The notes under the pieces are model-generated. The model did not search any database and was not told where the DNA came from. It was given only the letters and a program-made list of their open reading frames with translations. A stretch of DNA of 64,000 nt from the NCBI GenBank assembly GCA_964549315.1, contig CAZJUY010000006.1:45639-109638 (forward strand). The letters run 5' to 3'. This DNA is from an uncultured Chitinophaga sp. Lineage in GTDB: Bacteria; Bacteroidota; Bacteroidia; 2-12-FULL-35-15. How positions within the stretch are numbered: the first letter of the stretch is position 1; every line of letters starts with the position of its first letter. The position numbers and the translations under genes were made by a program. Of this stretch, positions 3,001-37,226 are shown in pieces.

Positions 3001-3892
3001 TTCTTGCGGAGGAAGTATTACACTTGATGCTGGAAATTCAGGAATGGATTATTTGTGGAACAACAGTTCAACAAGTCAAACCATTACCGTATTTATTACA
3101 GGAACTTATTCTGTAATGGTTACTGATTTGTCAACTGGATGTCAAGCAGCAGATACAGTTAATTTAACAATTGGAAGTATTCCTGTTGTGAATATTGGGA
3201 ATGATAGTACACAATGCGGAGGTGTAATTACATTAAATGCTCAAAATGCTGGTGCTACTTATTTATGGAGTACTTCAGCAAGTACACAAACTATAACAGT
3301 TAGTACAAGTGGTACATACAATGTAACAGTTACAAATTCCGATGGATGTTCTGCAAGCGATACAGTAATGCTAACAATTAATCCTTTACCTGGTGTTGGA
3401 TTAATTCCATTTAGCAGCCCGGTTTGTAATGATTTAACATCATTTATTTTAACAAACGGAACACCTTCCGGTGGAGTATATAGCGGACCTACAGTTGTAG
3501 GAAATGTGTTTAATCCACAGGCAGCAGGTGTTGGCTCGCATACTATTACATATACAATTACTGATGGTAATGGATGTTCTAATTCATCTTCACAAAATAT
3601 AATGGTAAACAATTGTATAGGAATAATTGAAAGTAGCAATACTTATTTTGTAAATGTATATCCAAACCCAACACAAGGTACATTTACATTAGCTATTGAT
3701 AATGCTTCAATTGATGAGTTGTTAATTTCAATAGTAGATATGCAAGGGAAAGAAGTATTTGCTGTTCGCGAAAAAAATATTGCAACAGAGTACAAAAAAC
3801 AAATTGATTTATCTGATGTTTCAAAAGGAATTTACTTTATTAAATTAAGTACAGGTTCCGATGTTAAAGTTCAGAAATTAATTATTCAATAA
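2..3892 (+). CDS. Large secreted cell-surface repeat protein, T9SS cargo with a type-A (Por_Secre_tail) C-terminal sorting domain. The 5' end is partial: the frame is open from the window edge and the tracked Met at 458 is internal.
   Basis: The frame containing 458..3892 is open back to nt 2 with the same Thr/Ser/Gly-rich composition. The C-terminus 'VNVYPNPTQGTFTLAIDN...GIYFIKLSTGSDVKVQKLIIQ' is a typical Por secretion tail. There are 6-7 tandem ~70-aa repeats, each with two conserved Cys ('LPxxNLGAD..C.G..TLDAGN.G..YLWN..ST.QTITV...GTYSV.VT....C...D...VTIN', nt ~2120-3400), and two ~85-aa repeats (nt ~950-1460). Confidence 0.8.
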   Translation, partial: PTASTYEIGLRGASNADFNNRTTTTDWSATTAGAVNSANNTLTTTVFPASGQTYTWTPPLPCSGTPVAGTASGPAAACSGTNFNVSLSGYTTGATGIVFQWQSSPDGVTYSNIAGATNATSAVNQTSTTYYQCIVTCTASGLSSTSNAFQVTMNPFYNCYCASNATNAGDEEIFNVTVGSLNNSSTCATTGGPGSVLSLYSDYTTIATAPNLAKSANYTFSIQIGTCGGNFTSGTAIFIDYNQNGLFTDPGEQVFTTPVGTNGPHTVTGNFTVPMAALSGTTRMRVINAEGFAGAGITPCLVYGYGETEDYLVNIVPLPPNPPTPVQDPSIPTCASGTDLTVPGSPAPGDAWYWQTTAMGTSTANAVSGPYTVFLNGTYYVRTYNAANMIWSAGSDSVVVSNIPLAPLPPSPTAAASPACTSTTISVVAPPSGVGYFWQGTTVNGTSTTQNATSPYTVNASGTYYVSAYDSTSSCWSNTNGVAVQIDTFIPQAPVSSGNVTICAGASSAMIAATVASSGSQTVSFGTNLISTGTVPAVFNATIPALPAGATITGTQLEILGATALGGSYRSEIRVALSGVITLPATQISPLASAGLITPDPVITVANPPIGGGAVTLTLTETFDDGGNDASFNEIRLIINYTLPTTTINWYNASTAGVMQGSGSPFQTVGTTLLPNTNTAGTYTFYAEAVSGACASTTRSNVDVIINPLPVMTLNDTAVCTGSTYTLDAQNAGSTYLWNTTETTQTIVVSTGGAYSVDITTALGCTATDNMNLILNSLPIVNLGADVAFCDGDNITLDAGNTGMDFLWNDTAASTTQTITVTTGATYSVLVTNPSTGCSNTDDIIVTVNPNPVQNLGADSAQCAGTITLDAGSGNYNYMWNDASTSQTLIASATGTYSVMVVDSITGCYQADSINVTINSLPVVDLGLDSIQCGGTIVLDAGNTGSTYLWSDASASQTLSATSTGTYAVTVTDVNSCSASDTIDITINNLPTPNLGADSSSCGGSITLDAGNSGMDYLWNNSSTSQTITVFITGTYSVMVTDLSTGCQAADTVNLTIGSIPVVNIGNDSTQCGGVITLNAQNAGATYLWSTSASTQTITVSTSGTYNVTVTNSDGCSASDTVMLTINPLPGVGLIPFSSPVCNDLTSFILTNGTPSGGVYSGPTVVGNVFNPQAAGVGSHTITYTITDGNGCSNSSSQNIMVNNCIGIIESSNTYFVNVYPNPTQGTFTLAIDNASIDELLISIVDMQGKEVFAVREKNIATEYKKQIDLSDVSKGIYFIKLSTGSDVKVQKLIIQ

Positions 3893-3963: not shown

Positions 3964-5922
3964 TCACTTCTGCTGTTCAGCAAAAGTAGAAATAGCAATA
4001 ATCTGGATTTTTCGTTCTAGAGCAGCCGCAGGGCTGTAAACAGAGTTTTTAGTGTCGTAATAATCATCACTCACATTTGGTCTTGCTTTTAATTCTCCTA
4101 TTTCTTCTTCAAAAAAAGTAATACTTCCTTCTGCCGTATTTGAGTTGTTTACATATTTTACCAATATGCCATTTTCATATTCCATAAAATAATTTTTTAA
4201 GCTCGAAATTCTTCGTTTAGCTAAATTCACATTGTAATCGGTAGAAGCAAGTGGGCTACAATAGCCTTTCATGGTAATAGTTACTTTTTCATTGTTTTTT
4301 AAAACTTTTACAAGCAGTTGAGCAAAACGTTCAAGGTCTTGCATTCCTGCATCCACACTATCATCAAACAATGCATCAATATCATTTATGGCGCGCTCAT
4401 AATCTTTTTCTTTTGCGCCTTTACTATATTCTTTTTTATACTGCTCACGCATCACCGAATAATCTTCGTATGTTTTTTTGTAATTCTTTTTGGTGCTTGT
4501 TGCTAAAGTTTTTTTATCAGGCTCATCATTATGGAAATAAAGCGTAAGCGGAACCAACACTTTCATTTGTGTTATAAATATTTGTGTGCTATCCACTTTT
4601 TTTGGTGTTTCTTCAATCTTCGGAATTTTAAACATATAAATATCATTACAGCAAGATTCTTTTTCTTCGAAATAAGAACCCAAACGATTAGATGAAATAA
4701 ATGCTTGTGTTTTTTTTGAGTTGATGCTAAAATAAATATCGTTGTAATTGCTGTTTATGGGTAGTCCTAAATTTTTGGGGTCTTCAAACGTGCTTTCTTT
4801 GTAAGCACTTTTAAAAATATCAAAACCACCTAATCCTTTATGCCATGTACTGCTAAAAAATAATTCGTTACAAGGTGTACAATAAAAAGGGGTTATTTCA
4901 TCTTCAATAGAATTTACTTTTTTTCCCGCATTAACAGGCTTTCCATAACTGCCATCTTTATTAATTTTACTATACCAAATATCCATTTGTCCTTCTCCTC
5001 CTGGTCGGTTCGAAGAGAAAAATAAAACTTCATCATCACCCAAAAAACCTGTTGCGGGTTGTGTATTGGTATACCCTTTTGCATTTATATCATCTGGTAA
5101 TTTTTTAAGCGTTAGCCAATGTCCGTCTTTGTATTCGGACGAATAAATTTCACAATTAAACTCCTGCGCATTTTTTTGTTGGCATCGGCTGATATATACT
5201 TTTGTATAATCACTGTTAAAAGCAGTGTTGGCAGTATGAATACCTTGTTGGTTAAAAAGTGTATCCAACTCTTTTGATTTTTGCCATTTAATTGAATCCT
5301 GAATGGAAGTATATATTTTGTTATAATTAACATTGTTTTTTTTATCTCTGTCTTTTGCATCACGTAAGGAAGAGAAGTAGAGTAGGCTATCCACCTGCAT
5401 GGGCGCATATTCCGAAACTTTACTATTTACTGTGCTATCTAAATGAATAACGGTGATTGATTTGTCGGGAGTACTTGTTAATATTTGCGCTAAATCACAA
5501 GCAGCTACTTCTTGCAATGCTTTTTTTACAAAATAACTGTCTTTCTTTTTTTTGTTTTTCTTTGCGTACTTATCAAACATTTTTTTTGCATCCTTGTACT
5601 TGCCTTTGTTTTTTTTGATTGATGCTAACCAAAACACACATTCAGGATACAACTTTCCGCTTGGGTCTTTTTTATAAACTTTGCTATACCAATGGTCGGC
5701 AATGTCAAAATCGTAATTTAATCTGCTTGCATCAGCATATTTGTATTGCAATGTAACATCCGATGAATCCTGTAAAATAGCTTGGTTATAATAGATAGAT
5801 GCGCTAAAAAAATTGTTTTCAGCAAAGGCTTTATCTCCGTCTTCAATCAGCTGTTTATACTTCTGAGCTTTTGAAAACAAACTAGTAAGGAGGAATAAAA
5901 AGAAAATTGTTTTTCTCAACAT
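3964..5922 (-). CDS. OmpA-family envelope protein with an N-terminal TPR-like region and TolB-like (PD40/WD40-like) beta-propeller repeats
   Basis: Signal peptide MLRKTIFFLFLLTSLFSKAQ. PD40-like motifs 'LLYFSSLRD', 'VLFFSSNRPGGEGQMDIWYS', 'ELFFSSTWHKGLGGFDIFKS'. C-terminal OmpA-like peptidoglycan-binding motif 'MKGYCSPLASTDYNVNLAKRRISSLKNYF'. Confidence 0.75.
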   Translation of the reverse strand: MLRKTIFFLFLLTSLFSKAQKYKQLIEDGDKAFAENNFFSASIYYNQAILQDSSDVTLQYKYADASRLNYDFDIADHWYSKVYKKDPSGKLYPECVFWLASIKKNKGKYKDAKKMFDKYAKKNKKKKDSYFVKKALQEVAACDLAQILTSTPDKSITVIHLDSTVNSKVSEYAPMQVDSLLYFSSLRDAKDRDKKNNVNYNKIYTSIQDSIKWQKSKELDTLFNQQGIHTANTAFNSDYTKVYISRCQQKNAQEFNCEIYSSEYKDGHWLTLKKLPDDINAKGYTNTQPATGFLGDDEVLFFSSNRPGGEGQMDIWYSKINKDGSYGKPVNAGKKVNSIEDEITPFYCTPCNELFFSSTWHKGLGGFDIFKSAYKESTFEDPKNLGLPINSNYNDIYFSINSKKTQAFISSNRLGSYFEEKESCCNDIYMFKIPKIEETPKKVDSTQIFITQMKVLVPLTLYFHNDEPDKKTLATSTKKNYKKTYEDYSVMREQYKKEYSKGAKEKDYERAINDIDALFDDSVDAGMQDLERFAQLLVKVLKNNEKVTITMKGYCSPLASTDYNVNLAKRRISSLKNYFMEYENGILVKYVNNSNTAEGSITFFEEEIGELKARPNVSDDYYDTKNSVYSPAAALERKIQIIAISTFAEQQK

Positions 5923-5959
5923 ATATCAAAAATATAGCTTTTAAAATTAGAACACAATT

Positions 5960-7504
5960 TTATTTTTTAAGACGATTGATTGTTTTTGATATGTATATTT
6001 CTGTTGGCATTAATGAATGCTGAATACGTTTTGCATATTTAATACTATCAATAATTTCTCTCTGTTTTTCTTCTATTATTTCTTTTTGAAGAGTTATTTC
6101 AAGATTTGCTTTTTTCTTTTCTCTAAATCTTTTGTAGGATAAAAATGCTAAGCCTATAAGCAATAGTATTCCTCCAATCATTGCATATGTAATTATGTTT
6201 TGGCGAGCAATACGTTCGTTTTTTACTTCTTGGTCTTTTGTCAATAATTCTATTTCTTTTTGTTTTTTCTCACTTTCGTATTGTGTTTCAAGTTCATTCA
6301 ATTGTTTTGAATTTGTTTCATTTAACAACGAGTCTTTAGTTGCCATATATTCATTCACATATTCATAAGCTTTTTCAAAATTTTTCATTTTAGCATAGGT
6401 TTGCGAAAGAGCCAAATAAGAATTTTTTAATTCCTCTTTTATATCTAACTCTTTTGATAGTTTTAATGAGTTCAATTGATATTCAAGTGCTTTTTTGTAA
6501 TCTCCTTTTTCTGAATAAGCAGAACCTACACTATAATCAATATTTGCAATTGTCTGTTTGTTGCCAATTTCTTCGGCAATTTTTCTTGATTTTAAATAAT
6601 ACTCAATTGATAAATCAAATTGTTTGTATTCGTAAAATATATTTGCCAATATAGAATAAGAGTACTGCAAGCCACCAACATCTCCAATTTCATTTTGAAT
6701 GGCAATAGCTTTATTCACAGCTTCTGAAGCTTCGGTGTGTTTTTTTAGTTGGTTCAATGCACTTGATTCTAAAATATAAGTGGTAGCAACACCACTTTTG
6801 TCATTTAGTTCTGTACGAATGGTTCTGCATTTTTTAGCATATTCTATGGCTTGTAAATGTTTTCCTTGCATATAAAAAGCTCTACCAATATTATAGTATG
6901 CCATGTTGATCCCATAATTGTCTTTTGCTTTTTCAAATACTTTCAAAGATTTAAATAAATACTCTGAAGACAATTTGTAATCCCCTTTCATATTGTAGGT
7001 ATTTCCCAAATTTTGATAAGAGGTTGCAATACTTTTTTCATTGTTTAATTTTTTGCTATACTCTAAACTCATTTCTTGATAATAAATAGCCGAATCAAAC
7101 ATTGCTAGTCCATTAAAAGCACTACCAATATTTCCCGAAGAACTAGCCATTCCTTTTAAGAAGTTTACTTCGGTATAGCCACTAAGAGTTTTCATAAAAT
7201 ATTGCCGAGCATTAGCAAAATCTTGTTTTAAATAGTAATAAACCCCAATAACATTATTTGCTGCAGCTTCAGTTGTTTTGTAATTTGATTTGATGGAGAG
7301 AGCTAAAGCTTCTTCTGCTAGTTTTTTTGATTTTTCTGGGTCAGAAAATTTTATTTCAAACCCAATTTGTGCCAATAAGCTTGCTCGGGTTGTGTCATGT
7401 TTTGCTTTTGGAAGAAGCGCTTCCAAACTATCTACTTTTGAAGTTTGAGAAAATAGTGATTGAATTATTATGCAAAAAAATAATGTGGTTGCCTTAAATT
7501 TCAT
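5960..7504 (-). CDS. TPR-repeat membrane protein. It is the short paralog of the TPR-PP2C sensors: TPR array, then coiled coil/TM, then the juxtamembrane 'YAKRIQ.SL.P' motif, with no phosphatase domain.
   Basis: Signal/TM at the N-terminus, then ~9 TPR-like repeats (NxGxxY patterns). There is a coiled-coil 'LNELETQYESEKKQKEIELLTKDQE' and a TM 'IITYAMIGGILLLIGLAFLSY'. The protein ends 'IIDSIKYAKRIQHSLMPTEIYISKTINRLKK*', 37 bp from the next gene. Confidence 0.75.
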   Translation of the reverse strand: MKFKATTLFFCIIIQSLFSQTSKVDSLEALLPKAKHDTTRASLLAQIGFEIKFSDPEKSKKLAEEALALSIKSNYKTTEAAANNVIGVYYYLKQDFANARQYFMKTLSGYTEVNFLKGMASSSGNIGSAFNGLAMFDSAIYYQEMSLEYSKKLNNEKSIATSYQNLGNTYNMKGDYKLSSEYLFKSLKVFEKAKDNYGINMAYYNIGRAFYMQGKHLQAIEYAKKCRTIRTELNDKSGVATTYILESSALNQLKKHTEASEAVNKAIAIQNEIGDVGGLQYSYSILANIFYEYKQFDLSIEYYLKSRKIAEEIGNKQTIANIDYSVGSAYSEKGDYKKALEYQLNSLKLSKELDIKEELKNSYLALSQTYAKMKNFEKAYEYVNEYMATKDSLLNETNSKQLNELETQYESEKKQKEIELLTKDQEVKNERIARQNIITYAMIGGILLLIGLAFLSYKRFREKKKANLEITLQKEIIEEKQREIIDSIKYAKRIQHSLMPTEIYISKTINRLKK

Positions 7505-7582
7505 AATAGTAGTATTGGTATATCAAAAATAGAAAATCTCAACGAATATTCGTTGAGATTTTCACACTTGGTTCTTACTTAT

Positions 7583-10500
7583 TTATTCACCTTTTAATAA
7601 TGTTACATGTCCTGTGTAATCATGATTTCTGTTTCTGAAATCTTTTACGTTAATTTTATAAACGTAAACTCCTGTTTGTGAGATTTCACTTCCACCATTT
7701 GCTGTTCCATTCCAACCTTGGTAGATATTATCCGTTTCAAAAATTAATTCTCCCCAACGGTTAAATATCATCATTTTAAATTCGTTTATTTCGGCACCTT
7801 TTGCAGTAAAATAATCATTGTGTCCATTTCCATCAGGTGTAAATGCATTAGGGATATAAAGTGTAAATTCTGGTTTTATCTCTACTGGAATAGCAATTGA
7901 GTCTCTACATCCATCAGGACTTATTGTAATTAGAGTTACTAGGTACTCGCCTTTATCAGCATAAGTGTGCTGCGGATTTATTTGAGTAGATGTTCCTCCA
8001 TCACCAAAACTCCAAGTATGTGATGCATAATTGATAGAGTTATTTACAAATTTGTAAATCGGACTTATAGTAGTTCCATCCATCGCTTCGGCAGTAAACA
8101 ATGCTTTTGAAGGAGTGTAAACTACTACAGTTGCTGTTGTGTTTGCAGTATTCACACATCCAAATGGGGAAGTTACAGCTACAGTAATATTGTAAATCCC
8201 ACTTTGTCCGTAGGTATGTTGCGGACTCGTTTGATAAGAAGTTGTACCATCACCAAAATTCCAATTGTATTGAGCTCCATTATTAGTTGTAGAATTATCT
8301 ACAAAGGTTAAATTCACTTCACCACAATCAACTGCTGAAGCAGGTGTCAAACTTATAACTGGCAATGGATTTACTATCACTGGAACTGTTCCAGTAATTG
8401 AATTATTACATGCATCTGTTACCGTTACAATGTAGTTTGTTGTATTTGTAGGAGATACTGTAAATGGTCCATTTCCTGAACCTAATCCATTACTCCAAAC
8501 TACTGTTACGGGGCCAGTATTTCCTGAAACAGTTGAAGAAATAATCGCACTATTTCCTACACAAATTGATGATGAAGGAGAAATCGTTAAATTGGCTGCA
8601 GTTAAAGATGTAACGTTTATAGAAACACTTGCCATATTACCTGTACATCCGTTCGCATCGGTTACACTTACATTATAAACGGTTGGTGATGTAGGAGACA
8701 CATTTTGTGATGCTCCTATCATTGAGCCATTCCAGATGTAAATGTATCCACCATTACCACCAGTTGCATTTGCATTTATAGTTGTTGATTGCCCAGAACA
8801 AATAGTGGTTGTTCCTGCGGCAATTAAACTAATAGGTGCTGGTTGTGTAACACTCACACTTGATGTTGCAGTACATCCATTATTATCTGTTACTGTAATA
8901 TTATATGTTCCAGAACATAATCCGTTTGCACTAGCACTTGTTCCACCAGTTGGTAACCATTGATAAGAATATGTTGGTGAACCGCCACTTGGGATTACCA
9001 CTGCCTGTCCATTACAAGCGCCATTGCATGTTGCTGGGAAGCCTGCTGTTGCCAATGTAATAGGTGTAGGTTGTGTAATATTAATATTTGAAGTAGAAAC
9101 ACAACCATTTGCATCTGTTACAGTTGCAATATAATTTCCAACAGATAATCCATTTATTGTTTGCGTGTTTTGTATTGGTGATGTGTTCCATGAATAAGTA
9201 TAAGGGCCAACTCCTCCAGATGCACCCACTGTTGCTTGTCCATTATTTAAACCATTGCAAGTAATATTATTTACCACCATGGCATTACTTATAAGGGCAG
9301 TAGGTTCTGTGATAATAAAACTTTGAGTGATTGAACATCCATTGTTATCAGTTACTATAACAGATATACTTCCTGCATACAAGTTTGTTGCAGTTGATGT
9401 AGTTTGTGTAGGGGTTGAATTCCAAACATAAGAATAGGGCGCTGTTCCTCCTGAAGGTAAAATTGTTGCAGATCCATTATTTGATCCATTACAAGTTACA
9501 TTGGTTTGGTTGGATGTATATGCTAATGCAGTTGCAGGTTGTGTAATTGTTACACTTGAACTTGTAACACAACCATTTGCTGTGGTAACAGATACATTAT
9601 ATGTCCCTGCTGCTAAATTATTTATTGTGGCAGTGGTTGCTCCGTTGCTCCATAAGTAGGTATATGGTGGCTGACCACCATTTGCATTTACCGTTGCACT
9701 TCCATTATTCCCTCCATAACAACCTACGTTTGTAGAACTCATGTTCACATTTCCAGGAGCAGCTCCGCTTCCAACGGTAACATTTGCCGTACTTGAACAA
9801 CCTCCTGCACCGGTTACAGTTACTCCATAAGTTCCTGCACTCAATCCATTGTGTGTTGGATTACTTCCTCCAACCGACCATGAATATGTAAAAGGTCCTG
9901 TTCCACTTACAACAGAAACTGTAGCCGTGCCATTTGATGCTCCACAGTTTGCATTTGTAGAGGAAGTGTTTAATACAATTCCAGTAACGCTTATGCAAAA
10001 TGAATAAGATTGTGTTCCATTGTATGGACAGTTGTTATCTTGAACAGTAACAGTAAAACAGTTAGATGCATTTCCAATATTTGCTTGGGTTGGAGTCCAG
10101 CTAAAAGTTCCTGTTGGTCTTGAGCCACCACTTGATGTAAATGTTGCACCACTAATTCCACTGTTCCATGTGATGGTTACGTTTTGTGATGCATCAGCAT
10201 CAAAAGTTGGAATGTTAAAATTAATTGGAACACCTGCACAAGCAGTTAAGGAATAAACTCCTGTGTTATTAATACCATTCACATAAGGGTTGTTGTTTGT
10301 ACAAGTGATTGTACGCAATTGAATGTCTCTCATCACACTGCCAACTAAAACTTCATTACGATATTCTTGTACTAAAATGGTAAATACTGTTACTTGTAAT
10401 GCAGTTGGCGTCATACACATGTCTCCAGTTAAGTTATTAAACGTAACTGCTGGAGATGATAATAATGGTTGTTGTGCTGAGTAAGGTGCGTTATAAGTTA

Positions 10501-11146
10501 CAGTGGTTGTTGGGCTAGTGTTAGGGGTGATTAAAGTATAATATAATGAGTCTCCATCAATATCAGTAGAACCATTATTAAAACAATAAGGTTGACCTAC
10601 ACAAACAAAAGGGATGGGTGGATTCGAAAATGTAGGGGAGCTATTGCAAGGGAAATTAAGATTATCTAAATGCGCCTCGATATAAATATTTTGACTGCCT
10701 GGAGCTTGAATTGTGCCTATTGCAGCATTTCTACAGCATAGGTTAAAACTCATCACCCAGTCGGTACATTGTGCTGGGAATGTTACAATGCCTCTGTATA
10801 TGTATTCCTGAACACCTGGGTATGTTCCTCCCGAACATTGCGTTGTCATTGTAGCGCATATAGGAGTAACTTCTATACCTGTGTTTGCAATACGATTTAA
10901 TGTTACGTTAAAATTTTGGTTGCACGATGCCGATGAAATATTTATTGAGGCTGTGTTTGGTGCTGCTACACCCGCGCAGTCGCGATAAAAGGAAAGTGAA
11001 ATTTGATACTGATTGCCACCTAGGCATTGGTATGTTAAGTCCGCACTTTGTGCATGCGAAGCATAAGCTTCATTTTGTGATTGAATAAATAATATTAAGA
11101 AACTTATTGCAACGAAAACCTGTTTTATAATAGTAGTTGTTTTCAT
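7583..11146 (-). CDS. SprB-repeat cell-surface adhesin with PKD domains and a type-B T9SS C-terminal domain (gliding-motility-associated CTD)
   Basis: Signal peptide [29 protein letters not shown]. There are at least six SprB-type repeats ('[25 protein letters not shown]', '[25 protein letters not shown]', and others). Two PKD-like modules ('[30 protein letters not shown]', '[30 protein letters not shown]'). C-terminus '[18 protein letters not shown]...NRWGELIF...GVYVY' matches the TIGR04131 type-B CTD. Confidence 0.85.
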   Translation of the reverse strand: [1187 protein letters not shown]

Positions 11147-11362
11147 AATAATCCTCCGTTTCTTTTAAATGGGTAAAACAATAAATTAAGAACTTACCTC
11201 TTTCAACGCCCCAAAAAATAAAGAGTTTCAAAAAAGCTAATAAAAATTCTATTTTGTTAATTAGCTGAAAGTGCCCAAAAATAAAAAGATACAAAAGGTT
11301 GAAACTTAATAAAATTTGTTTCGTACAACTATGCCAGTGGTTAGAATCTTTAAAGAAATAGC

Positions 11363-13453
11363 TCAAATAATTAATCCTATCACAACCACATCATCCACTT
11401 GTTCTAAGTTTCCTTTCCAATTATCAAATGTGTTTGCAATTATTTCTTTTTGAGTATCTATTGGCTTGTTATAATTTTCGGATAGCAATTTTTTGAGCTG
11501 ATTGTATTTGAATTTTTTCCCTTTGTCGCCACCAAATTGGTCAGCATACCCATCACTAAACAAATAAACAGCATCTCCTTTTTGTAGTTGAATTTTATGG
11601 TTGGTGTAATTATCTACAATACCATCTAAATTTATTCCTATTGGAAATTTATCAGCTTTTATCTCAAATATTTTTTGGTTTCTTACATAATATAAAGAAT
11701 TGAATGCACCAGCATATTGCAATTCATTTGTTTTAGTATTTAAAGTGCACAAAGATAAATCCATTCCATCTTTAACTCCTTTACCATCTTCTGATTGGCG
11801 TAATGTTTTTGTAACACCAGCATCTAAATGTTTTAAAATTTCTGCAGGTTCTGTTAAACCAACTTCATTTACTGCTTGAGTTAATAAGTTAAACCCTACC
11901 ACACTCATTAAGGCACCTGGAACTCCATGGCCAGTACAATCAACTGCTGCGAAACAAACAAATTCATTTTTTTGTTCTATCCAATAAAAATCACCGCTAA
12001 CAATATCTTTTGGTCTGTAAAAAATAAAACTATTGGGTAAAAGCGTTTTCCAGTGTTGATTGGGCGGCAAGATAGACTCCTGAATGCGTTTGGCATAATT
12101 AATACTATCTGTAATTTCTTTTTTTTGCTGAGTTATTTCAATATTTTGATGTTCTAATAATTTGTTTGCTTTTTGTTTTAACTGGAATCTGTTTAGTAAA
12201 AACAACGATAGAGTTACGACTAGCAAAATGGATACTATTAAAATAAACATCCACATTTTGTTTTTGTTCAACTGCAATGACTGAATCTCAGATTCCTTTG
12301 TAATTATTTCTAATTCTTTTTGTCGTTTTTCCGATTCATATTTTGTTTGTAATTCATTTAGTTGTTTAGTATTTTCAGAGTTAAAAATCGAGTCTTTTAT
12401 ATTTATCAACTCTTTTTGGCTTTCAAATGCTTTTTGATAATTTCCCATTTTAGCATATGATTCAGAATAGGTTTCATATCCGTATCTTATTAACTCTTTT
12501 GCATTTAACTCTTTAGCAATAGCCATTGCCCTGTCTAAGTATTGAAAACCTTTTTCGTATTTTGATCGATTACAATAATTGCTACCCATACTAAAAAGTG
12601 TTATTGCTAAGTTGTATTTATCTTTTAGCTTTTCTCTAATTTTTAATGATTGTTCAAAATAGAATAAAGCAACTTCATGTTTCCCTTCATCTTCATACAC
12701 ACTTCCAATATTATTTAATGTAAGAGCTGTCCCCGATTCGTCATTTGCTTCTTTTCTTGCGACTAATGCTTTTCTATTGTATTCTAAACTTTTTGCTGTG
12801 TCTCCTTTGACTTTATAGATTAAGGCAATGTTGTGTAGTGAGTTGCCAATTCCTCTTTTGTTATTTATTTCTGTTTTTATTTTTAATGACTTATGTTGAT
12901 ACTCTAATGCTTCATCATATTTGCCAAGAAATTTATAAATTAAAGCAATGTTGTTATAAGTACTTCCAAGCTGCCATTTACTTCCTCCTACTTCTTCAGA
13001 AATTTTTAATGATTGTAAATAATAATCTAAAGCTTTGTTATAATCCGCTTTGTCGTCATACACTAAACCAATATTGTTTAGGGCAACTGCAATTTTATTT
13101 TTATTATTTAGTTGTTTCGCAATTTTTAATGAACGGTTAAAATATTCTAAAGCTTTTTCATAATTGCTGGAATAATAGGAGATAAGTCCGATGTTATTAT
13201 AAGAATTCATTTTCCCTTCATTAAAATCAATTTTTTCAGATAGGGTCAATGCTTCGTTTGCCAGTTTTAAAGCATCTTCTGTGTTGTCTGCAGAGTATTC
13301 GTAAGCAAGCTCATTTGTTATTTTAATTCGTAATGTATCAACAATATTTTTTTGAAGAATATTTTTTAAACTATCGGCAGTATGGTTGCTTTGAGAAACT
13401 GAAAATTTCGCAAACAGGAATAGCAATAGAAAATATGCAATTTTTTGTTTCAT
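11363..13453 (-). CDS. TPR-repeat membrane sensor fused to a PP2C-type (SpoIIE/RsbU-like) serine phosphatase domain
   Basis: Signal peptide, ~9 TPR repeats, a coiled coil 'LNELQTKYESEKRQKELEII', a TM 'MWMFILIVSILLVVTLSLFLL', then 'SINYAKRIQESILPP...SGDFYW'. PP2C motifs present: 'VDCTGHGVPGALMS', 'DGMDLSLC', 'FSDGYADQFGG' and 'EQVDDVVVIGLII'. Confidence 0.85.
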   Translation of the reverse strand: MKQKIAYFLLLFLFAKFSVSQSNHTADSLKNILQKNIVDTLRIKITNELAYEYSADNTEDALKLANEALTLSEKIDFNEGKMNSYNNIGLISYYSSNYEKALEYFNRSLKIAKQLNNKNKIAVALNNIGLVYDDKADYNKALDYYLQSLKISEEVGGSKWQLGSTYNNIALIYKFLGKYDEALEYQHKSLKIKTEINNKRGIGNSLHNIALIYKVKGDTAKSLEYNRKALVARKEANDESGTALTLNNIGSVYEDEGKHEVALFYFEQSLKIREKLKDKYNLAITLFSMGSNYCNRSKYEKGFQYLDRAMAIAKELNAKELIRYGYETYSESYAKMGNYQKAFESQKELINIKDSIFNSENTKQLNELQTKYESEKRQKELEIITKESEIQSLQLNKNKMWMFILIVSILLVVTLSLFLLNRFQLKQKANKLLEHQNIEITQQKKEITDSINYAKRIQESILPPNQHWKTLLPNSFIFYRPKDIVSGDFYWIEQKNEFVCFAAVDCTGHGVPGALMSVVGFNLLTQAVNEVGLTEPAEILKHLDAGVTKTLRQSEDGKGVKDGMDLSLCTLNTKTNELQYAGAFNSLYYVRNQKIFEIKADKFPIGINLDGIVDNYTNHKIQLQKGDAVYLFSDGYADQFGGDKGKKFKYNQLKKLLSENYNKPIDTQKEIIANTFDNWKGNLEQVDDVVVIGLII

Positions 13454-16400
13454 TATATTTTAATTCCGATTACCAATATATCATCAACTTGTTCTAGGTT
13501 CCCTTGCCATTCAGAAATTGTTTTGTCTAGCAGCACCCCTTGTTCTTCCATTTCGGTGTTTTTTTGTAAAGCTATTAAAGTTTGATGAAATCTTTTCACC
13601 ATATATTTTTTACCTTTTTCTCCGCCAAATTGATCAGCGTATCCATCCGTTGTCATATAAATAACATCTCCTTTTTCTAATTCTAAAGTATGATTTGTAA
13701 ACACACGATCTTCATTCATCTGATCTCCACCGATGGGCTGTTTATCAGCTTTAATTTCTTGCAATTTATTTTCTTTAATAAGTATTAAAGAACGATTTGC
13801 TCCTGCATACTGCAATTGTGTTTTGTTGTTATTAAATACACAAATAGAAATATCCATTCCATCACGAGTTTCGCTTTGTTCTAAATCTTGTTTTAAAGAT
13901 TGCCGAACGCGTTCATGAAGTAAGTTTAAAATTTTGGCTGGTGTAACAATATTTTTTTCTATTACAATTTCATTAAGTAAGGTATTTCCAATCATACTCA
14001 TAAATGCACCAGGAACACCATGTCCTGTGCAATCAACGCATGCAATAATGTATTGATTGTTATGTTTTGTAAACCAGTAAAAATCACCACTTACAATATC
14101 TCTTGGTTTAAATAGTACGAATGATTTTGGGAATGTTTTTTTTATTTCGTCCTTTAATGGAAGTATTGCTTCTTGAATGCGTTTTGCATAATTGATACTT
14201 GATTTTATATCATTGTAAGCAACTTCTATAATTGTATTTTTTTCTATTAGTTCTTCTTTTTGCTTTACAACTTCAGATGTTCTTTCTGATACTATTCGTT
14301 CGAGTTTTATTTTTGCTACTTGTAGTCGTCTAACACTTAATTGAACTATTAGAATAATAATAATGATAAGTCCTAAGAAGTAAAATACATAAGCCCAAAT
14401 TGTTCTATATAAAGGAGGCAGTATGGTAAACTTATAATTAGCTATTGTACTTTCATGCTCATATATATTTTTTGCTTTTACTGAAAAGGTGTATTCGCCT
14501 TCATAGAGATTAGTGTATTGTTTTACTCCTGTTGAAGACCAATCCGACCAAGCAGTATCAAAGCCCGAAAGCTTATAACTGTAAAGTAATTTATCTTCTC
14601 TTTCAAAAAATGCAGCAGCGTAATCAAAGGAAATAGAATTGTAATTATAGTTGATAGTTTGTTCAATATTTTTTTTAGTGCTATCACTTACAATGATATT
14701 AAGCAAGGAGTCTTTTCCGATTGTTACTTTTCTAATAATTGTATTATAATTAGGAGAGTAGTTCTTTTTAATGCCTCCGTCATATCTTACAAGCACATCT
14801 GTTAATCCTATCCACAATATTTTATCACTATTTTGATAAAAAGTGTAGCCTTGATTTTCTAGGAATAATAATGCTTTTTGAGTGATTTTTCCTCCTGCTG
14901 ATTTTTTGTTTAATAAATCTAATTTGTTGCCACTATGATTGTATGTTATATCTAAGCCTTTTGAAATGGCAAAACATTTCTGTTTACCCTTGTCTAAGTT
15001 TGGAAGATATTCGTAGGTGTTTGTTGTAGTGAAAAAAAATAATTTATCATTGTTGTTTACAATATTCGTAGCTTGTTTAGGTGCACCCTGCGTACTATCA
15101 TATTGAGATATTTTATAATTTAATTTCGCATCTAATGTTATTTTTAAGATTCCACTATTTCTTGTTGCTGCCCATAGTTCAGAATTTACATTCTTGTTTA
15201 TTTCTATTAAATGTAAGACATCACTTGTGGGAATTTCAATGTATTTAATGATTTTCCATTCATTGTTTTTATCTTTTTCTAAAATTTTTAACCCGTCTTT
15301 TTCTCCAACATACATTCTATTGCTATTAGTAGTTGAATTACACAGAACAGTTGAATAAGCTTTAGTTAGCCTTTTGCTATTATTCCCAACTATTTCAAAT
15401 ACACCGTCACTAGTTGCTGCAAACAGTTGATTTCCATTTGCATTAAAATTCCAAACTTCAAAATAAGTTCCTCCTATTTGTTCAAATTGTAATGGTTTTG
15501 GCTTTCCGCTAATATTATTATCGTTTAAAATAGCTGAACTCATCCCTGAAGTAGTTCCTAAATAAATTTTATTATTAAAAATAATAATCGACTCAATATT
15601 ACCACTAAACCCTGTTTTATTGCTGTAATAATATAATGGAGAATGAATAGATATTTTACCGATACCATTATTTGTACACACCCACAGTTGATCTTCAGAA
15701 TCAAAAAAAATGTTTGCTATAGATTCATCGTTTAAACCATCTGTTTTGTTGATTCGACTAGTAATTTCTAGATTTTTATTTAGAAAAAACAATCCAGAAC
15801 GTGTATTTAAAATAATAGAGGAATCATTAAACCACCTTATTCCCAGAGGGCCTGCATCTAGTATTTCTTTTTGTGAAACAGGGTTTATTTTTTTTGTTTC
15901 ATTTGTTGCAAGATTCATTATAAAGAAACCTTGATCAACAGATAATGCAATGATTTGGTTTGTGTTTTCTTTTGGGTAATTTACCATTCCAACGATAGGC
16001 TCGTTGGCAAACAACTCTCCTCCAGAAATTAATGTTGTTTTTTTTCCATCAAATTGTAGCATGCCAATTTTGCGTTCTCGAAAATAAATTTTGTCCCCTA
16101 TTTTGAATGAGATAGATGCAAAAGAATTTGATGAAGGTGGAATTGTTTTTACAATCCCATTCTCATATACAAATAAGTTTTCACTGGACTGAAATATAAC
16201 TGCATCATTAAGTTCATGAATTTCCCATATATCTGCAAATTTTTTTGCTTCTTGATTTAAGTTTTTTGAGATCGATTGATAGGTCATTTCACCTTTTTCA
16301 TTTGGTTTTAAGTACCCAAATTCTCCAACTGCCCCAACGTAAATAGTTCCTTTTTTATCTTTTATCAAAGAGCGAATAGCAACACCGCTTGTAATAAATA

Positions 16401-16617
16401 TCTTTCGCCAAGATTTCCCGTCATACTCAAGTATATTAGTACTGTTGCCAAAATAAAGAACGCCTCTCTCATCTTGCACACAATTCCAAACTTGCATAAA
16501 ACCATTGTACTCTTTTGGTGAATAGTTGCGTATTGGATAGCCATTGTACTGAGCAAACAGTTTTATGCTATAGCAAAGAATTAATAAGGTGAAAAATATT
16601 TTTTTAAGGTAATACAC
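13453..16617 (-). CDS. Periplasmic beta-propeller (two-component-regulator propeller repeats) plus Y_Y_Y sensor, then a TM helix, fused to a cytoplasmic PP2C/SpoIIE phosphatase
   Basis: Signal peptide. Repeated Reg_prop-like blades ('VWNCVQDERGVLYFGNSTNILEYDGKSWRKI' and others). Y_Y_Y-like segment 'YSYKLSGFDTAWSDWSSTGVKQYTNLYEGEYTFSVKAKN'. TM 'IWAYVFYFLGLIIIIILIV'. Then 'SINYAKRIQEAILP...SGDFYWF', 'VDCTGHGVPGAFMS', 'DGMDISICV', 'TTDGYADQFGG' and 'EQVDDILVIGIKI'. The stop overlaps the start of the downstream paralog (ATGA at 13453). Confidence 0.85.
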   Translation of the reverse strand: MYYLKKIFFTLLILCYSIKLFAQYNGYPIRNYSPKEYNGFMQVWNCVQDERGVLYFGNSTNILEYDGKSWRKIFITSGVAIRSLIKDKKGTIYVGAVGEFGYLKPNEKGEMTYQSISKNLNQEAKKFADIWEIHELNDAVIFQSSENLFVYENGIVKTIPPSSNSFASISFKIGDKIYFRERKIGMLQFDGKKTTLISGGELFANEPIVGMVNYPKENTNQIIALSVDQGFFIMNLATNETKKINPVSQKEILDAGPLGIRWFNDSSIILNTRSGLFFLNKNLEITSRINKTDGLNDESIANIFFDSEDQLWVCTNNGIGKISIHSPLYYYSNKTGFSGNIESIIIFNNKIYLGTTSGMSSAILNDNNISGKPKPLQFEQIGGTYFEVWNFNANGNQLFAATSDGVFEIVGNNSKRLTKAYSTVLCNSTTNSNRMYVGEKDGLKILEKDKNNEWKIIKYIEIPTSDVLHLIEINKNVNSELWAATRNSGILKITLDAKLNYKISQYDSTQGAPKQATNIVNNNDKLFFFTTTNTYEYLPNLDKGKQKCFAISKGLDITYNHSGNKLDLLNKKSAGGKITQKALLFLENQGYTFYQNSDKILWIGLTDVLVRYDGGIKKNYSPNYNTIIRKVTIGKDSLLNIIVSDSTKKNIEQTINYNYNSISFDYAAAFFEREDKLLYSYKLSGFDTAWSDWSSTGVKQYTNLYEGEYTFSVKAKNIYEHESTIANYKFTILPPLYRTIWAYVFYFLGLIIIIILIVQLSVRRLQVAKIKLERIVSERTSEVVKQKEELIEKNTIIEVAYNDIKSSINYAKRIQEAILPLKDEIKKTFPKSFVLFKPRDIVSGDFYWFTKHNNQYIIACVDCTGHGVPGAFMSMIGNTLLNEIVIEKNIVTPAKILNLLHERVRQSLKQDLEQSETRDGMDISICVFNNNKTQLQYAGANRSLILIKENKLQEIKADKQPIGGDQMNEDRVFTNHTLELEKGDVIYMTTDGYADQFGGEKGKKYMVKRFHQTLIALQKNTEMEEQGVLLDKTISEWQGNLEQVDDILVIGIKI

Positions 16618-16634
16618 GTAATAAAAATAAGCTA

Positions 16635-17909
16635 TTATTTCAAACGATTTAAATTTTTTTCAATGTACTTGTCTTTTGGTAGTAAAGACTGTTGTATTCG
16701 TTTAGCGTAATGAATGCTATCTAAAATTTCTTTTTGTTTACCATCAACAATAGCTTTCTGGAATTCAACTTCTCGTTTTTGTTCTAAAATAAGTTCGTTT
16801 GCTTTTTGTTTGTTCTTATAACCAATAAAAATGGTTGCTATTACAATCAATAATAATGCTGATAGTATATATAGATTTTGTGTTTTAGCAGTTTGTTGTT
16901 CAAGTTTAACCTCTTTTATTTCGTTTTCTTTATTTAGGTTTTCGATTTGCAGTTGTTTTTTTTCATTTTGATATTTAGCTTCCATTTCATTTATAAGCCT
17001 TGCGTTTTCTGTGTTGTAAATTGTGTCTTTTAGGTTTGAGTATTCTGCAAAGTATTCATAAGCTTTTATGTAATTGTTTTGTTTTATATAAATATCAGAA
17101 GCCATTCTGTAGGAGTGTTTCAATAAATCCACATAGTTTATTTCTTTGGAAAGTTCTATGCATTTATTAAAATTCGTAAGGGCATTATCATATTGTTTCA
17201 TTTGTAAATACACTTCGCCAATATTTGTGTAGTTAATTGCAACTGATTTTTTGTCATCTAGCTCTAGTCGCAATTTCAATCCCTTATTTAAATAAGAGAT
17301 GGCCTCATTATACTTGCTTTGTGATGCATAAACTTCTGCTAAATAATTTAAACAGTAAGATTCTCCTAATTTATTATGTGATGATTGGTAAATTTTTAGC
17401 CCTTTCGTAAAACAGTCTATAGCTAAAAATGTATCATTGTTAAGTTGATGAATAAGTCCTATATCGCCCAATGAAGAAGCCATTGCGGAGCTATCATTCA
17501 TTGATTTTGCTAGGTTATATCCGGCAGTAAATTGCTCCAAAGACGCTTTTAAATTATTTTGTTTTTTATAATATGTTCCATAATAGTTATACATGGAAAT
17601 TAAAACATCGTTATATTTTTCTTGCTCAGCTATTTTCACAGCTTTTTGATAATACTCTAATGCTTTTGGGTAATTTCCTTTGTAATAATTCGCAATGCCT
17701 TTGTTTTTATAGCCTTCTGCAAGAGCGTGTTTGTTGTGGTTGGACTCAGCATATTTTATTAATTGTTCAGCAAAATAAATACTGCTATCTAAATTTGTGT
17801 TGGTAGTTCGGTTAAAATTATTTAATAAGACAGATAGTGTATCTGCTTTAGTTTTGTTAGTAAGTATTACTAGGAATATAGTTATATATATTTTAAATAG
17901 TTCTTTCAT
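16635..17909 (-). CDS. TPR-repeat membrane protein, second short paralog ending at the 'YAKRIQ.SL.P...NRLK' motif with no PP2C domain
   Basis: Signal peptide, TPR array, coiled coil 'INEMEAKYQNEKKQLQIENLNKENE' and TM 'LYILSALLLIVIATIFIGY'. The C-terminus 'ILDSIHYAKRIQQSLLPKDKYIEKNLNRLK*' ends 18 bp before the start of the next gene (16617). Confidence 0.75.
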   Translation of the reverse strand: MKELFKIYITIFLVILTNKTKADTLSVLLNNFNRTTNTNLDSSIYFAEQLIKYAESNHNKHALAEGYKNKGIANYYKGNYPKALEYYQKAVKIAEQEKYNDVLISMYNYYGTYYKKQNNLKASLEQFTAGYNLAKSMNDSSAMASSLGDIGLIHQLNNDTFLAIDCFTKGLKIYQSSHNKLGESYCLNYLAEVYASQSKYNEAISYLNKGLKLRLELDDKKSVAINYTNIGEVYLQMKQYDNALTNFNKCIELSKEINYVDLLKHSYRMASDIYIKQNNYIKAYEYFAEYSNLKDTIYNTENARLINEMEAKYQNEKKQLQIENLNKENEIKEVKLEQQTAKTQNLYILSALLLIVIATIFIGYKNKQKANELILEQKREVEFQKAIVDGKQKEILDSIHYAKRIQQSLLPKDKYIEKNLNRLK

Positions 17910-18024: not shown

Positions 18025-19674
18025 TTGTTAAAAATAAAGTTACCAATTTTTGTTTTTTTGTTTGCCCTCTTATTTATAGGAGGTGAAAATAGCTATGCGC
18101 AAGTAAACAATAAAAGAGGCGCGAAAACCTATTTGGCTAATGAAGATTACAACCGCGCTTTAAAAGAATATCTTAAACAATATCCCGAAAAAAAAACCGA
18201 TTTGCCTCTGAATTTAAACATAGGGATGTGTTATTTGAACATAAATGATGATAAATCAAAAGCAATACCTTATTTAGATTACGTTTATAGAAGTGGAAAG
18301 TATAATAATAACTTGCTTCTCTATTTGGGAATGGCTTATATGTACAATTATGAGTTTGATAAAGCCATTGGTTTTTTTAATGATTATAAAACAAAATCAA
18401 AAGATATAGATGTAGCAAATGCATTAATAGACAATTGCGAAAGCGCAAAAGTGCTAATTAAAAAGCCCATAAATGTTTCATTTGAAAATTTAGGAAAAGA
18501 AATAAATACTGCCTTTCCTGATTATTATCCTTTTGTTAATGAAGAAGAAAGCATCCTTTATTTTACAACGAGAAGAGATGCAACCATAGGAAATGTGCAG
18601 AGCTGGCAAGGATATTATACTTCTGACATTTATTTTTCTAAAGTGCAAAACGGAAAATGGTCAAAAGCTAAAAATGCTGGACCACTTTTAAATTCGCAGG
18701 AAGATGAACAATGTGTTTATCTTTCTCCTGATGGTAAAATTATGGTCGTTTATATTGATAATCAAAAAGTAGCAAGTGATTTGTTTGTTACTTCGATGTC
18801 TGGTAAAATAAAAAATTTTCCTAAGCCAACAATAATTGATGAGCCTATAAGTTCCGCAGATGTTGAATTTGAAGGTTGTATCACAGAAGATGGAAGTACA
18901 ATTATTTTTAATAGCGACAGGGCAGGAGGTTTTGGCGGAATGGATTTATACATGAGTAAAAAATTGCCGAATGGTAATTGGGGCACACCAGTAAATTTGG
19001 GAAGTGCTGTGAATACTAAATATAACGAAGGGTTTCCAAATTTTGATGAAAAAAACAACATTTTATATTTTGCATCTGAAGGACATTTTAATATGGGAGG
19101 CTATGATATTTTTAAATCAAAATTTAATTTAAAGACACAAAAATTTGAAGAAGCTGTTAATATTGGTTATCCATTGAATACTCCAGAAGACAATGTTCAG
19201 TTTTCATTAGCTGGAAACAAAAGAGATGGTTATATATCTGCTTACCGTAAAGAAGGTTATGGTGATTTAGATATTTATAAAGTGGTGTTTCACGATATTG
19301 AGCCTGCTCTAACAGCCTTTAAAGGTATTATTACCACAAACGACTCTTCTATAAAAGAAATAAATGCTTCTGTAAGGTTGTTGAATGCCCAAACTAAAGA
19401 AGAAATAGAATGGAAAGAGGTTAATTCTAAAACAAAACGTTTTGTTTTTGCTCTTGAGGCTGGTAATTATACAATTGAAGTGGAATGTGCTGGTTATGAT
19501 AAATACACAGAAAATTTTAGCATTTTGGATATGTCTGACTTTACTTCAGTAAAAGAAAAAAAAATACAACTTACTAAAATAGGTTCTGCTCCAATCTCAC
19601 CTGCTGCTAATACTAAACCGCAAGGAGCACCCAAATCTCCGCCTTCAAAGTCCACTGCAGTTAAGCCTAAATAA
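18025..19674 (+). CDS. Secreted TPR/TolB-like (PD40) repeat protein with a carboxypeptidase-regulatory-like beta-sandwich and a Pro-rich tail. It is a paralog of 3964..5922 but lacks the OmpA domain.
   Basis: Signal peptide MLKIKLPIFVFLFALLFIGGENSYA. PD40-like motifs 'ILYFTTRRDA', 'IIFNSDRAGGFGGMDLYMS' and 'ILYFASEGHFNMGGYDIFKS'. C-terminus 'GNYTIEVECAGYDKYTENF' then 'APISPAANTKPQGAPKSPPSKSTAVKPK'. Confidence 0.7.
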   Translation: MLKIKLPIFVFLFALLFIGGENSYAQVNNKRGAKTYLANEDYNRALKEYLKQYPEKKTDLPLNLNIGMCYLNINDDKSKAIPYLDYVYRSGKYNNNLLLYLGMAYMYNYEFDKAIGFFNDYKTKSKDIDVANALIDNCESAKVLIKKPINVSFENLGKEINTAFPDYYPFVNEEESILYFTTRRDATIGNVQSWQGYYTSDIYFSKVQNGKWSKAKNAGPLLNSQEDEQCVYLSPDGKIMVVYIDNQKVASDLFVTSMSGKIKNFPKPTIIDEPISSADVEFEGCITEDGSTIIFNSDRAGGFGGMDLYMSKKLPNGNWGTPVNLGSAVNTKYNEGFPNFDEKNNILYFASEGHFNMGGYDIFKSKFNLKTQKFEEAVNIGYPLNTPEDNVQFSLAGNKRDGYISAYRKEGYGDLDIYKVVFHDIEPALTAFKGIITTNDSSIKEINASVRLLNAQTKEEIEWKEVNSKTKRFVFALEAGNYTIEVECAGYDKYTENFSILDMSDFTSVKEKKIQLTKIGSAPISPAANTKPQGAPKSPPSKSTAVKPK

Positions 19675-29691: not shown

Positions 29692-29707
29692 TTTTGTATT
29701 CTATATA

Positions 29708-30685: not shown

Positions 30686-30690
30686 AGTTT

Positions 30691-33575: not shown

Positions 33576-33586
33576 ATTTTTATTTT

Positions 33587-34558: not shown

Positions 34559-34612
34559 TCAAGAAAATAGATTTAATTTGCACTTCTGTAAATTTATATA
34601 AATATTTGTTAA

Positions 34613-37216: not shown

Positions 37217-37226
37217 TAATTCAGTA

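Follow-up and report, generated by a model that had tools for sequence, protein, structure and literature searches.

Membrane sensors that end at the linker–catalytic junction of PP2C phosphatases in uncultured Bacteroidota: candidates for the sensor half of a split phosphatase

Introduction

What does a membrane sensor signal to when its polypeptide ends just where the phosphatase domain of its relatives begins? This question is raised by a 64,000-nucleotide stretch of DNA from an uncultured Chitinophaga sp. (contig CAZJUY010000006.1 of assembly GCA_964549315.1; the whole stretch is referred to as the window), in which six minus-strand genes stand in a row. From upstream to downstream these encode a short sensor (S2, 16635-17909), two sensor-linked PP2C phosphatases (the long forms L2, 13453-16617, and L1, 11363-13453), an SprB-repeat adhesin, a second short sensor (S1, 5960-7504) and a PorE-like protein of the OmpA family. 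An earlier note on this DNA had described the four sensors as variants of one design, and had suggested that the short forms act as partners or decoys of the long ones in the control of the adhesin.

To our knowledge, the accepted picture of a bacterial PPM phosphatase is one polypeptide whose sensor controls the catalytic domain via a helical linker. Here we report that S1 and S2 stop at the junction of linker and catalytic domain, that they belong to a large family of such proteins, and that some relatives of the window organism encode a linker-less PP2C protein beside a short form. Our proposal is that a split phosphatase has its sensor half in the short forms, which would dock a catalytic domain in trans, a reading that in our judgement could go either way.

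Results

Two of the four sensors lack a catalytic domain

All four open reading frames (ORFs) lie where the earlier note had placed them. S1 (514 aa) consists of a signal peptide, a tetratricopeptide repeat (TPR) array at about 6350-7444, a periplasmic stalk helix (6197-6325), a transmembrane (TM) segment (6134-6196), a cytoplasmic helix here called alpha0 (6008-6133) and a short tail. S2 (424 aa) has the same layout, with TPRs at about 17082-17792, the stalk at 16875-17018, the TM segment at 16818-16874 and alpha0 at 16680-16817. L1 (696 aa; TM segment 12194-12256) is a TPR sensor phosphatase, and L2 (1054 aa; TM segment 14338-14400) carries a Reg_prop/Y_Y_Y propeller. Pfam hidden Markov models (HMMs) agree with the assignment of TPR sensors to three of the genes (S1, S2 and L1) and of a Y_Y_Y propeller to L2. 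TPR is the sole Pfam match in S1 and in S2; L1 matches SpoIIE (PF07228, E=4e-21) in addition to TPR, and L2 matches it (E=3e-18) in addition to Reg_prop/Y_Y_Y. The coiled-coil-type linker element that had been described as common to three of the proteins was also recovered, as a periplasmic LNELETQYESEKKQKE-type motif in S1, L1 and S2.

The cytoplasmic parts of all four proteins share a YAKRIQ sequence embedded in (D/S)SIxYAKRIQxS(I/L)(L/M)P, located at residue 490 of 514 in S1, 401 of 424 in S2, 453 of 696 in L1 and 810 of 1054 in L2. In the long forms this alpha0 motif (12065-12109 in L1, 14158-14202 in L2) leads, as had been noted, into a PP2C domain (11366-12031, reached through a connector at 12029-12067, and 13456-14124, respectively), which carries all metal-binding Asp motifs (SGDFY, DCTGHG, DGMD, DGxxDQ and QxDD). 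In S1 the motif DSIKYAKRIQHSLMP (6005-6049) is followed by 15 residues, the tail PTEIYISKTINRLKK (5963-6007), and then by the stop codon; in S2 the motif (16677-16721) is followed by the 14 residues PKDKYIEKNLNRLK (16638-16679). The similar tails of about 15 residues announced by the earlier note are thus present in both.

S1 and S2 are not phosphatases, since they lack a SpoIIE match, stop 14-15 residues past the alpha0 motif and, in the AlphaFold2 (AF2) model of S2, show helices only. A PP2C HMM run over all six frames of the window detected L1 and L2 only, and neither the gaps downstream of S1 and S2 nor the next genes hold PP2C remnants. These gaps measure 37 nt, as previously stated, and 17 nt, one less than stated. 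An origin of the short forms by frameshift or read-through was therefore rejected: the gaps are of this size, the next genes are unrelated and no frame gives a PP2C signal. S2, L2 and L1 are contiguous: the 17-nt gap separates S2 from L2, L2 overlaps L1 by 1 nt, and no terminator-like site interrupts the three genes. A look-up of the exact S1 sequence found no record.

Likeness of the cytoplasmic helix to the PP2C linker

A phmmer comparison of the cytoplasmic region of L1 with the crystal structure of the SiaA PP2C domain (PDB 6K4E) gave E=1e-42 and aligned the motif with SiaA DSLDYASLIQRAILP. These residues, 418-432, to which the S1 motif also aligns, lie inside the first traced helix of 6K4E (construct 386-663, tracing begins at 407). 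This helix and the two after it (alpha1-alpha3) build the dimer interface of SiaA (PMC7647112). In RsbU and RssB the crossing linker helices pack against alpha1 of the PPM domain and switch the enzyme on by dimerising it; predictions extend this alpha0/alpha1/alpha2 interface to PPM phosphatases whose sensors are of many types (PMC12143880). In a Foldseek search with L1, SiaA was the closest solved structure (target-normalised TM-score 0.90 to 6K4E), followed by RssB, SpoIIE, RsbX and Rv1364c. By homology, the conserved helix of the short forms is the alpha0 linker helix of SiaA/RsbU-type PP2C phosphatases.

The AF2 model of the C-terminal part of L1 (pLDDT 88) shows one unbroken helix that includes the TM segment and extends as far as '...ESIL'; a P-P-N kink and a connector helix of 7 residues then lead to beta-strand 1 of the catalytic fold. 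In the model of S2 (pLDDT 89), TPR helices are followed by a single helix (residues 280-409) that comprises stalk, TM segment and alpha0, by a P-K-D kink (410-412) and by the tail helix (413-423). Since both models show this helix and a kink and only L1 goes on to beta1, the short forms are predicted to retain everything up to this strand and nothing past it.

A large family of short sensors with a conserved tail

A profile of the short C-terminal module was searched against representatives of 50%-identity clusters and matched 16,114 of them at E<=1e-3 and 7,068 at E<=1e-10. Among the best 150 matches, 119 stop 12-30 residues past the motif and 17 run on into a PP2C domain. Scanning one genome per species yielded 79 loci, all from uncultured Bacteroidota, with 123 short and 56 long forms. 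Tandem arrays are common, 39 short forms having another one immediately downstream, and two metagenome-assembled genomes (MAGs) hold at least 13 short forms each in the sampled loci alone; short forms outnumber long forms in those genomes. The sensor is a TPR array in 80 of 84 members and GldM_1st (GldM-N-like) in three, and Y_Y_Y occurs in at least one (P0002).

S1 and S2 display the traits of this family, namely an N-terminal signal peptide, a periplasmic sensor and a single TM helix. Both match the family helix 'EEKQKEIxDSIxYAKRIQxSLLP' and tail 'xEKYIxKxLxRLKK' and stop before beta1; helix motif and tail together read DSIKYAKRIQHSLMP-TEIYISKTINRLKK in S1 and DSIHYAKRIQQSLLP-KDKYIEKNLNRLK in S2. 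Across 84 aligned full-length short forms, with a mean column identity of 14%, invariance is confined to the D, S, I, A, R and Q columns of the motif. It was partly imposed by the regular expression that chose the sequences, an effect from which the R column and the nearly invariant K385, K391, K393, E394 and I395 are free. The tail follows the consensus P-S-E-K-Y-I-x-(K/R)-x-L-x-(K/R)-L-K-K over the 123 short forms and is basic and amphipathic. Its E-K-Y-I residues occur at frequencies of 84/71/87/86%, compared to 25-36% at the same positions of long forms, where the connector averages 1.15 bits per column. The tail is thus under a constraint of its own, stronger than that on the long-form connector.

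A clean separation of short and long forms into monophyletic groups was not borne out: the best match of a short form is short in 88 of 99 cases and that of a long form is long in 27 of 54, so that the groups are interleaved. This interleaving makes repeated interconversion of the two states likely. A word-index search with the S1 C-terminus returned three matches, two of which are short forms with other sensors, and the sole named cluster among those looked up is annotated 'tetratricopeptide (TPR) repeat protein'. We found no description of the short-form family in the literature on TPR/SpoIIE proteins in Bacteroidetes, PPM architectures, BT3442 or Flavobacterium PP2C. The short forms are a large Bacteroidota family of membrane sensors devoid of a catalytic domain, with S1 and S2 as intact members under selection.

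Some relatives combine the same parts differently. Ten proteins of about 940 aa (P0004, P0007-P0011, P0019, P0020, P0024 and P0069) are in-frame fusions of two complete short modules, in which the first tail runs into the would-be signal peptide of the next module; three TM segments and two alpha0 helices are predicted. The long form P0031 has an extended, short-like tail ahead of beta1. An alpha0 helix is also found on a small multi-TM sensor in place of the TPR array (L061:7209-7922, L169:4260-4991, L080:6595-7965 and L170:3213-4574; L numbers of three digits denote loci), and these proteins occur as short (238-243 aa) as well as long (453-456 aa) forms.

Orthologues of the short forms and the presence or absence of S1

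Locus L001 (MAG JAJNQB01) is collinear with the window for L2, L1, the adhesin (88% identical), S1 and the PorE-like gene. Its S1 orthologue is 76% identical, has the same length and ends at the same residue; the ratio of nonsynonymous to synonymous substitution rates (dN/dS) between the two is 0.094 overall and 0.047 over cytoplasmic helix and tail. The S2 orthologue P0014 (63% identity) is likewise short, and the metagenome contig L166 that holds it has the conserved order S2-L2-L1-adhesin. In three loci from more distant MAGs, L002-L004, where the adhesin is 65-79% identical, the gene after the adhesin is an S1 orthologue of 59-63% identity that is a full-length PP2C sensor of 735 aa (L002:8828-11032, L003:2512-4716, L004:9431-11032) with the ordinary connector '...RIQRALLASDNLLKKNLPEHFVLYKPKD'. 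Since these positional orthologues are long, the short state of S1 is probably derived. Up to '...EIIEEK' the L001 and L002 proteins agree at every residue, and beyond this point their identity falls, which suggests that the 3′ end of the S1 lineage was exchanged. The short versions in the window and L001 bear the family tail and not a clipped connector.

The earlier note had held the short forms to be a conserved family and not frameshifted pseudogenes, and profile searches, orthologues and dN/dS agree. The resemblance in motif and tails to which it pointed goes far beyond chance. Its alternative, that orthologues always carry a full PP2C domain, fails for the nearest ones (L001 and P0014) and holds for the positional orthologues of S1 in L002-L004.

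In L166, which lacks S1, the terminator hairpin of the adhesin gene directly precedes the PorE-like gene. In the window S1 is bounded by two minus-strand copies of the 13-nt direct repeat TATTTTTGATATA; the upstream copy (7519-7531) contains a promoter-like TAnnTTTG and the downstream copy (5922-5934) ends on the A of the PorE-like start codon. The exact repeat occurs twice in the 64 kb, where 0.04 copies are expected, and L166 has one copy. We take TAnnTTTG to be the Bacteroidetes -7 promoter consensus. Because the collinear L166 has a single repeat copy and no S1, S1 is a repeat-flanked single-gene indel. A sigma-70 promoter scan was discarded, as its scores were no better than those of shuffled sequences and the model is inappropriate for Bacteroidota.

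A free-standing PP2C without alpha0

Several related loci encode ORFs of about 236 aa that start 'ME(T)xxETKxFFILYKPKDIVSGDFY', just ahead of beta1, and thus have no alpha0 but keep all catalytic motifs. The best 120 clusters at 90% identity all measure 229-253 aa, are 69-97% identical to the query and begin 'METxTETKxFFILYKPKD'; they are a tight group of orthologues and have features peculiar to the lineage, among them SLNPEGSEEESKDGMDC. Directly next to such a free-standing PP2C, and on the same strand, lies a short form in L005, L012, L050, L061, L078, L084/85, L086, L167 and L169, in either gene order and mostly at a distance of 4-28 nt (19 nt in L167, 75 nt in L078). Viewed from the other side, four of eight contexts centred on the free-standing PP2C adjoin a short form, three adjoin a long form and one neither. 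A rough estimate, which supposes 60 short forms among 4,000 genes, puts the chance of four such adjacencies in eight at about 6e-5.

L078 and L086, both with the free-standing PP2C beside a short form, come from organisms closely related to that of the window, as their ABC-F ATPase shares 89-91% identity with the one encoded there, and one of these two MAGs also holds the long S1 orthologue of L002. When metagenomes were scanned with a profile of the free-standing PP2C, the matches listed were mostly long forms, L086 being the sole informative one. Several clusters of free-standing PP2C and sensor genes are followed closely by a gene for a very conserved protein of 150 aa ('MFEILKSFESKYGHLKKKGL...'; L061:8156-8605, L080:8941-9393 and L081:11563-12015), which matches no Pfam family and is probably merely syntenic.

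Gene neighbourhood and candidate substrates

The gene bracketed by the sensors (7583-11146, minus strand, 1187 aa) is, as the earlier note had recognised, an SprB-repeat adhesin of the type IX secretion system (T9SS) with a type-B C-terminal domain; it matches Pfam SprB five times, PKD_4, CHU_C and TIGR04131. The further proposal that the four sensor genes form a unit which controls the adhesin fared less well. In its favour, five of six related loci have an S1-lineage sensor after the adhesin orthologue, and T9SS cargo accounts for about 10 of the 99 genes next to short forms elsewhere. Against it stand the absence of S1 from L166, a terminator-like hairpin with a 14-bp stem between adhesin and S1 (7532-7563, minus strand; conserved in L166 and L001) and the heterogeneity of neighbours elsewhere. 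A Pfam census of these 99 neighbours counted 147 families and revealed no conserved partner, kinase or substrate. Altogether, the link between the sensors and the adhesin is weak.

Pfam scans of the ORFs in 458-41205 detected no substrate of the STAS/DUF1987 type, no HATPase-type kinase and no GGDEF cyclase. An RsbU-type partner-switching module, which would comprise a STAS anti-anti-sigma substrate and an anti-sigma kinase, is not visible in this part of the window, as the earlier note had remarked. Small DUF7793/SpoIIAA-like (STAS-like) proteins occur in 11 related loci (L168:1983-2384 and ten others) and not in the window. They lie near short forms, long forms or free-standing PP2C with no consistent adjacency, and are possible substrates of the phosphatase.

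The PorE-like/CHU_0125-family gene downstream of S1 (3964-5922, minus strand; partial matches to NCBIfam NF053607 and NF052230) is probably not part of the signalling unit. A second such paralogue, also assigned by NCBIfam, is divergent from S2 (18025-19674, plus strand), so that the two flank the sensor cluster; they share about 28% identity and both combine TPR, a PD40-like propeller and an OmpA-like domain. Further away, a large T9SS cargo protein (458-3892, plus strand; GEVED, Ig_7 and Por_Secre_tail) has an 84% identical orthologue in L001; its ORF, read from stop to stop, is truncated by the start of the window. A second single-gene indel concerns a protein of 445 aa (22871-24208, minus strand) that bears a Por_Secre_tail T9SS signal and is missing from the otherwise collinear L166. 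A MoxR-type cluster (28357-35329) encodes DUF58, an AAA_3 MoxR ATPase, DUF4350, a SpoIIM-like membrane protein and an RDD protein, together with two ORFs without Pfam match. Two plus-strand ORFs of 695 and 648 aa (37185-39272 and 39259-41205) have no Pfam match at E<=1e-4; their homologues adjoin the same ABC-F ATPase in L078, with 38% and 86% identity.

Discussion

The short forms are built as follows. Behind the signal peptide and the periplasmic TPR array, a long stalk helix crosses the membrane once and continues for about 45 residues as cytoplasmic alpha0, which after a proline kink passes into a short, basic, amphipathic tail helix and ends where beta-strand 1 of PP2C would start. In L1 and L2, where alpha0 is covalently joined to the phosphatase, the helix would bring two catalytic domains into position to dimerise and thereby control the enzyme, in analogy to RsbU, RssB and SiaA. 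S1 and S2 would signal in the same way, in response to a presumed ligand, but to a catalytic domain on a separate polypeptide, which alpha0 and tail would dock and switch, in a presumed direction and towards a presumed substrate. The partner in trans could be the dedicated free-standing PP2C (about 236 aa) or else the PP2C domains that nearby long forms carry, as L2 and L1 do, and many sensors could share one enzyme.

A split phosphatase, whose probability we put near the midpoint, fits the data best because the break falls exactly at the junction of alpha0/connector and beta1, because the tail is more constrained in the proteins without a covalent enzyme, because a conserved alpha0-less enzyme is encoded beside short forms, and because fused and split states interconvert within one orthologous lineage. 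Several observations weigh against it. No free-standing PP2C was detected by the PP2C HMM in any of the six frames of the 64-kb window. Adjacency to the free-standing PP2C is a minority situation, with eight adjacencies among 123 short forms, and 46 of the 79 loci hold short forms only and lack a PP2C domain in the surrounding 10 kb. Of the nine adjacent pairs, five come from loci that were picked for holding a short form, and genome-wide co-occurrence of short forms and free-standing PP2C was seen in six or seven MAGs only. Finally, the operonic arrangement of S2 with L2 and L1 would be equally good for heterodimers.

Such heterodimers are at the core of the earlier note's model, in which short and long forms would associate via stalk, TM segment and alpha0, and the resulting dimers, with one PP2C only, would damp or re-tune L1 and L2. 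The uninterrupted S2-L2-L1 arrangement, conserved in L166, speaks for this model, as do the 14 of 123 short forms with a long form as immediate neighbour, the short-short fusions, which show such modules combined in one protein, and the need of PPM activation for dimerisation of the domains (PMC12143880). Yet most short forms stand in arrays or alone, the majority of loci without any nearby PP2C counting here too, and they outnumber long forms. Dimerising helices would suffice for a decoy, but the tail past the motif is more conserved than in long forms; in stalk and TM segment S2 departs substantially from the sequences of L1 and L2, and the model has no role for the free-standing PP2C beside short forms. 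We regard a decoy function as rather unlikely.

Alternatively, the short forms might work independently of PP2C, as membrane-anchored periplasmic TPR scaffolds, e.g., in envelope or T9SS-cargo handling, whose helix and tail would attach to a kinase, to a STAS-like protein or to the surface of the membrane, or would only oligomerise. The T9SS cargo genes among the neighbours, the location of S1 between adhesin and PorE-like gene, an amphipathic, basic tail such as a membrane-surface helix could have, and the DUF7793/SpoIIAA-like proteins in 11 related loci would all be compatible with this. We nevertheless consider it unlikely: the PP2C linker of the long forms and of SiaA is a residue-by-residue homologue of this helix, short and long states interconvert within one lineage, the specific, repeated pairing with an alpha0-less PP2C would go unexplained, and the neighbourhoods are otherwise heterogeneous. 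That the short forms are recent, strain-specific truncations, pseudogene-like remnants of long forms, could be argued from the full-length state of the more distant S1 orthologues and from the lack of S1 in L166. This we hold to be very improbable, as the stop falls at the same residue in orthologues of 76% and 63% identity, dN/dS amounts to 0.09 for the whole gene and 0.05 for the tail region, the conserved tail recurs in thousands of family members, and no PP2C remnants are found downstream.

What would be new in a split phosphatase is that sensor and linker of sensor-linked PPM phosphatases are encoded apart from the enzyme, to which they would dock in trans. If true, a natural and widespread split at the linker–catalytic junction would be a ready-made test of the linker model, because the linker would have to act in trans. 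It would also show many inputs funnelled into one Ser/Thr phosphatase, and provide a role for the thousands of proteins whose present annotation is just 'tetratricopeptide repeat protein'. More tentatively, and with some doubt on our part, a mostly uncultured Bacteroidota clade might let dozens of sensors per genome converge on one soluble PP2C and switch between fused and split states by exchange of 3′ ends.

Several known systems bear comparison with these sensors. FimS of Porphyromonas (NF053520) and the BT3442 family (NF053779) have a similar TPR array, 'KYExEKKxKEI' stalk and single TM segment, as seen from partial NCBIfam matches that score far below the cut-offs. S1 and S2 match only the TPR and stalk portion of NF053520, with 83-144 bits against a cut-off of 600; according to Pfam they carry no HisKA or HATPase_c domain, and their cytoplasmic helix is of the PP2C type. 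SiaA (PA0172) of the SiaABCD biofilm pathway in Pseudomonas aeruginosa shares the PP2C domain and preceding helix with L1 and L2, and the helix only with S1 and S2. L1 and L2 score 211 and 213 bits against positions 385-656 of the SiaA NCBIfam profile (NF038263), the equivalog cut-off of which is 700. In contrast to the TPR or propeller sensors of the window, SiaA has a HAMP domain and two TM segments. No homologue of SiaB, SiaC or SiaD was found in 458-41205, and S1 and S2 are without any catalytic domain. RssB, the E. coli pseudophosphatase adaptor, offers a precedent within this lineage, having lost catalysis but retained its regulatory linker and a portion of the fold (PMC12143880); it is a soluble response-regulator fusion with a partial PPM fold, whereas the short forms are membrane sensors with none of it.

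A mechanistic precedent is provided by RsbU/RsbT and RsbP/RsbQ of Bacillus subtilis, where a helical alpha0 links the PPM domain to a dimeric sensor module and lies packed against alpha1 (Baral et al., eLife 2025, PMC12143880). Once ordered, the linker makes the enzyme dimerise and become active, a mechanism that we assume to operate in L1 and L2 and, with the linker acting in trans, also in S1 and S2. In all described cases, linker and catalytic domain form one polypeptide and the regulators acting in trans, RsbT and RsbQ, are another kind of protein, whereas in the split forms the break would fall between linker and catalytic domain. In its overall logic, and by analogy only, as there is no kinship of sequence or fold, such a system would resemble the arrays of methyl-accepting chemotaxis proteins (MCPs) and CheA, in which many enzyme-less transmembrane sensors control a shared soluble enzyme, just as many short forms may share one PP2C.

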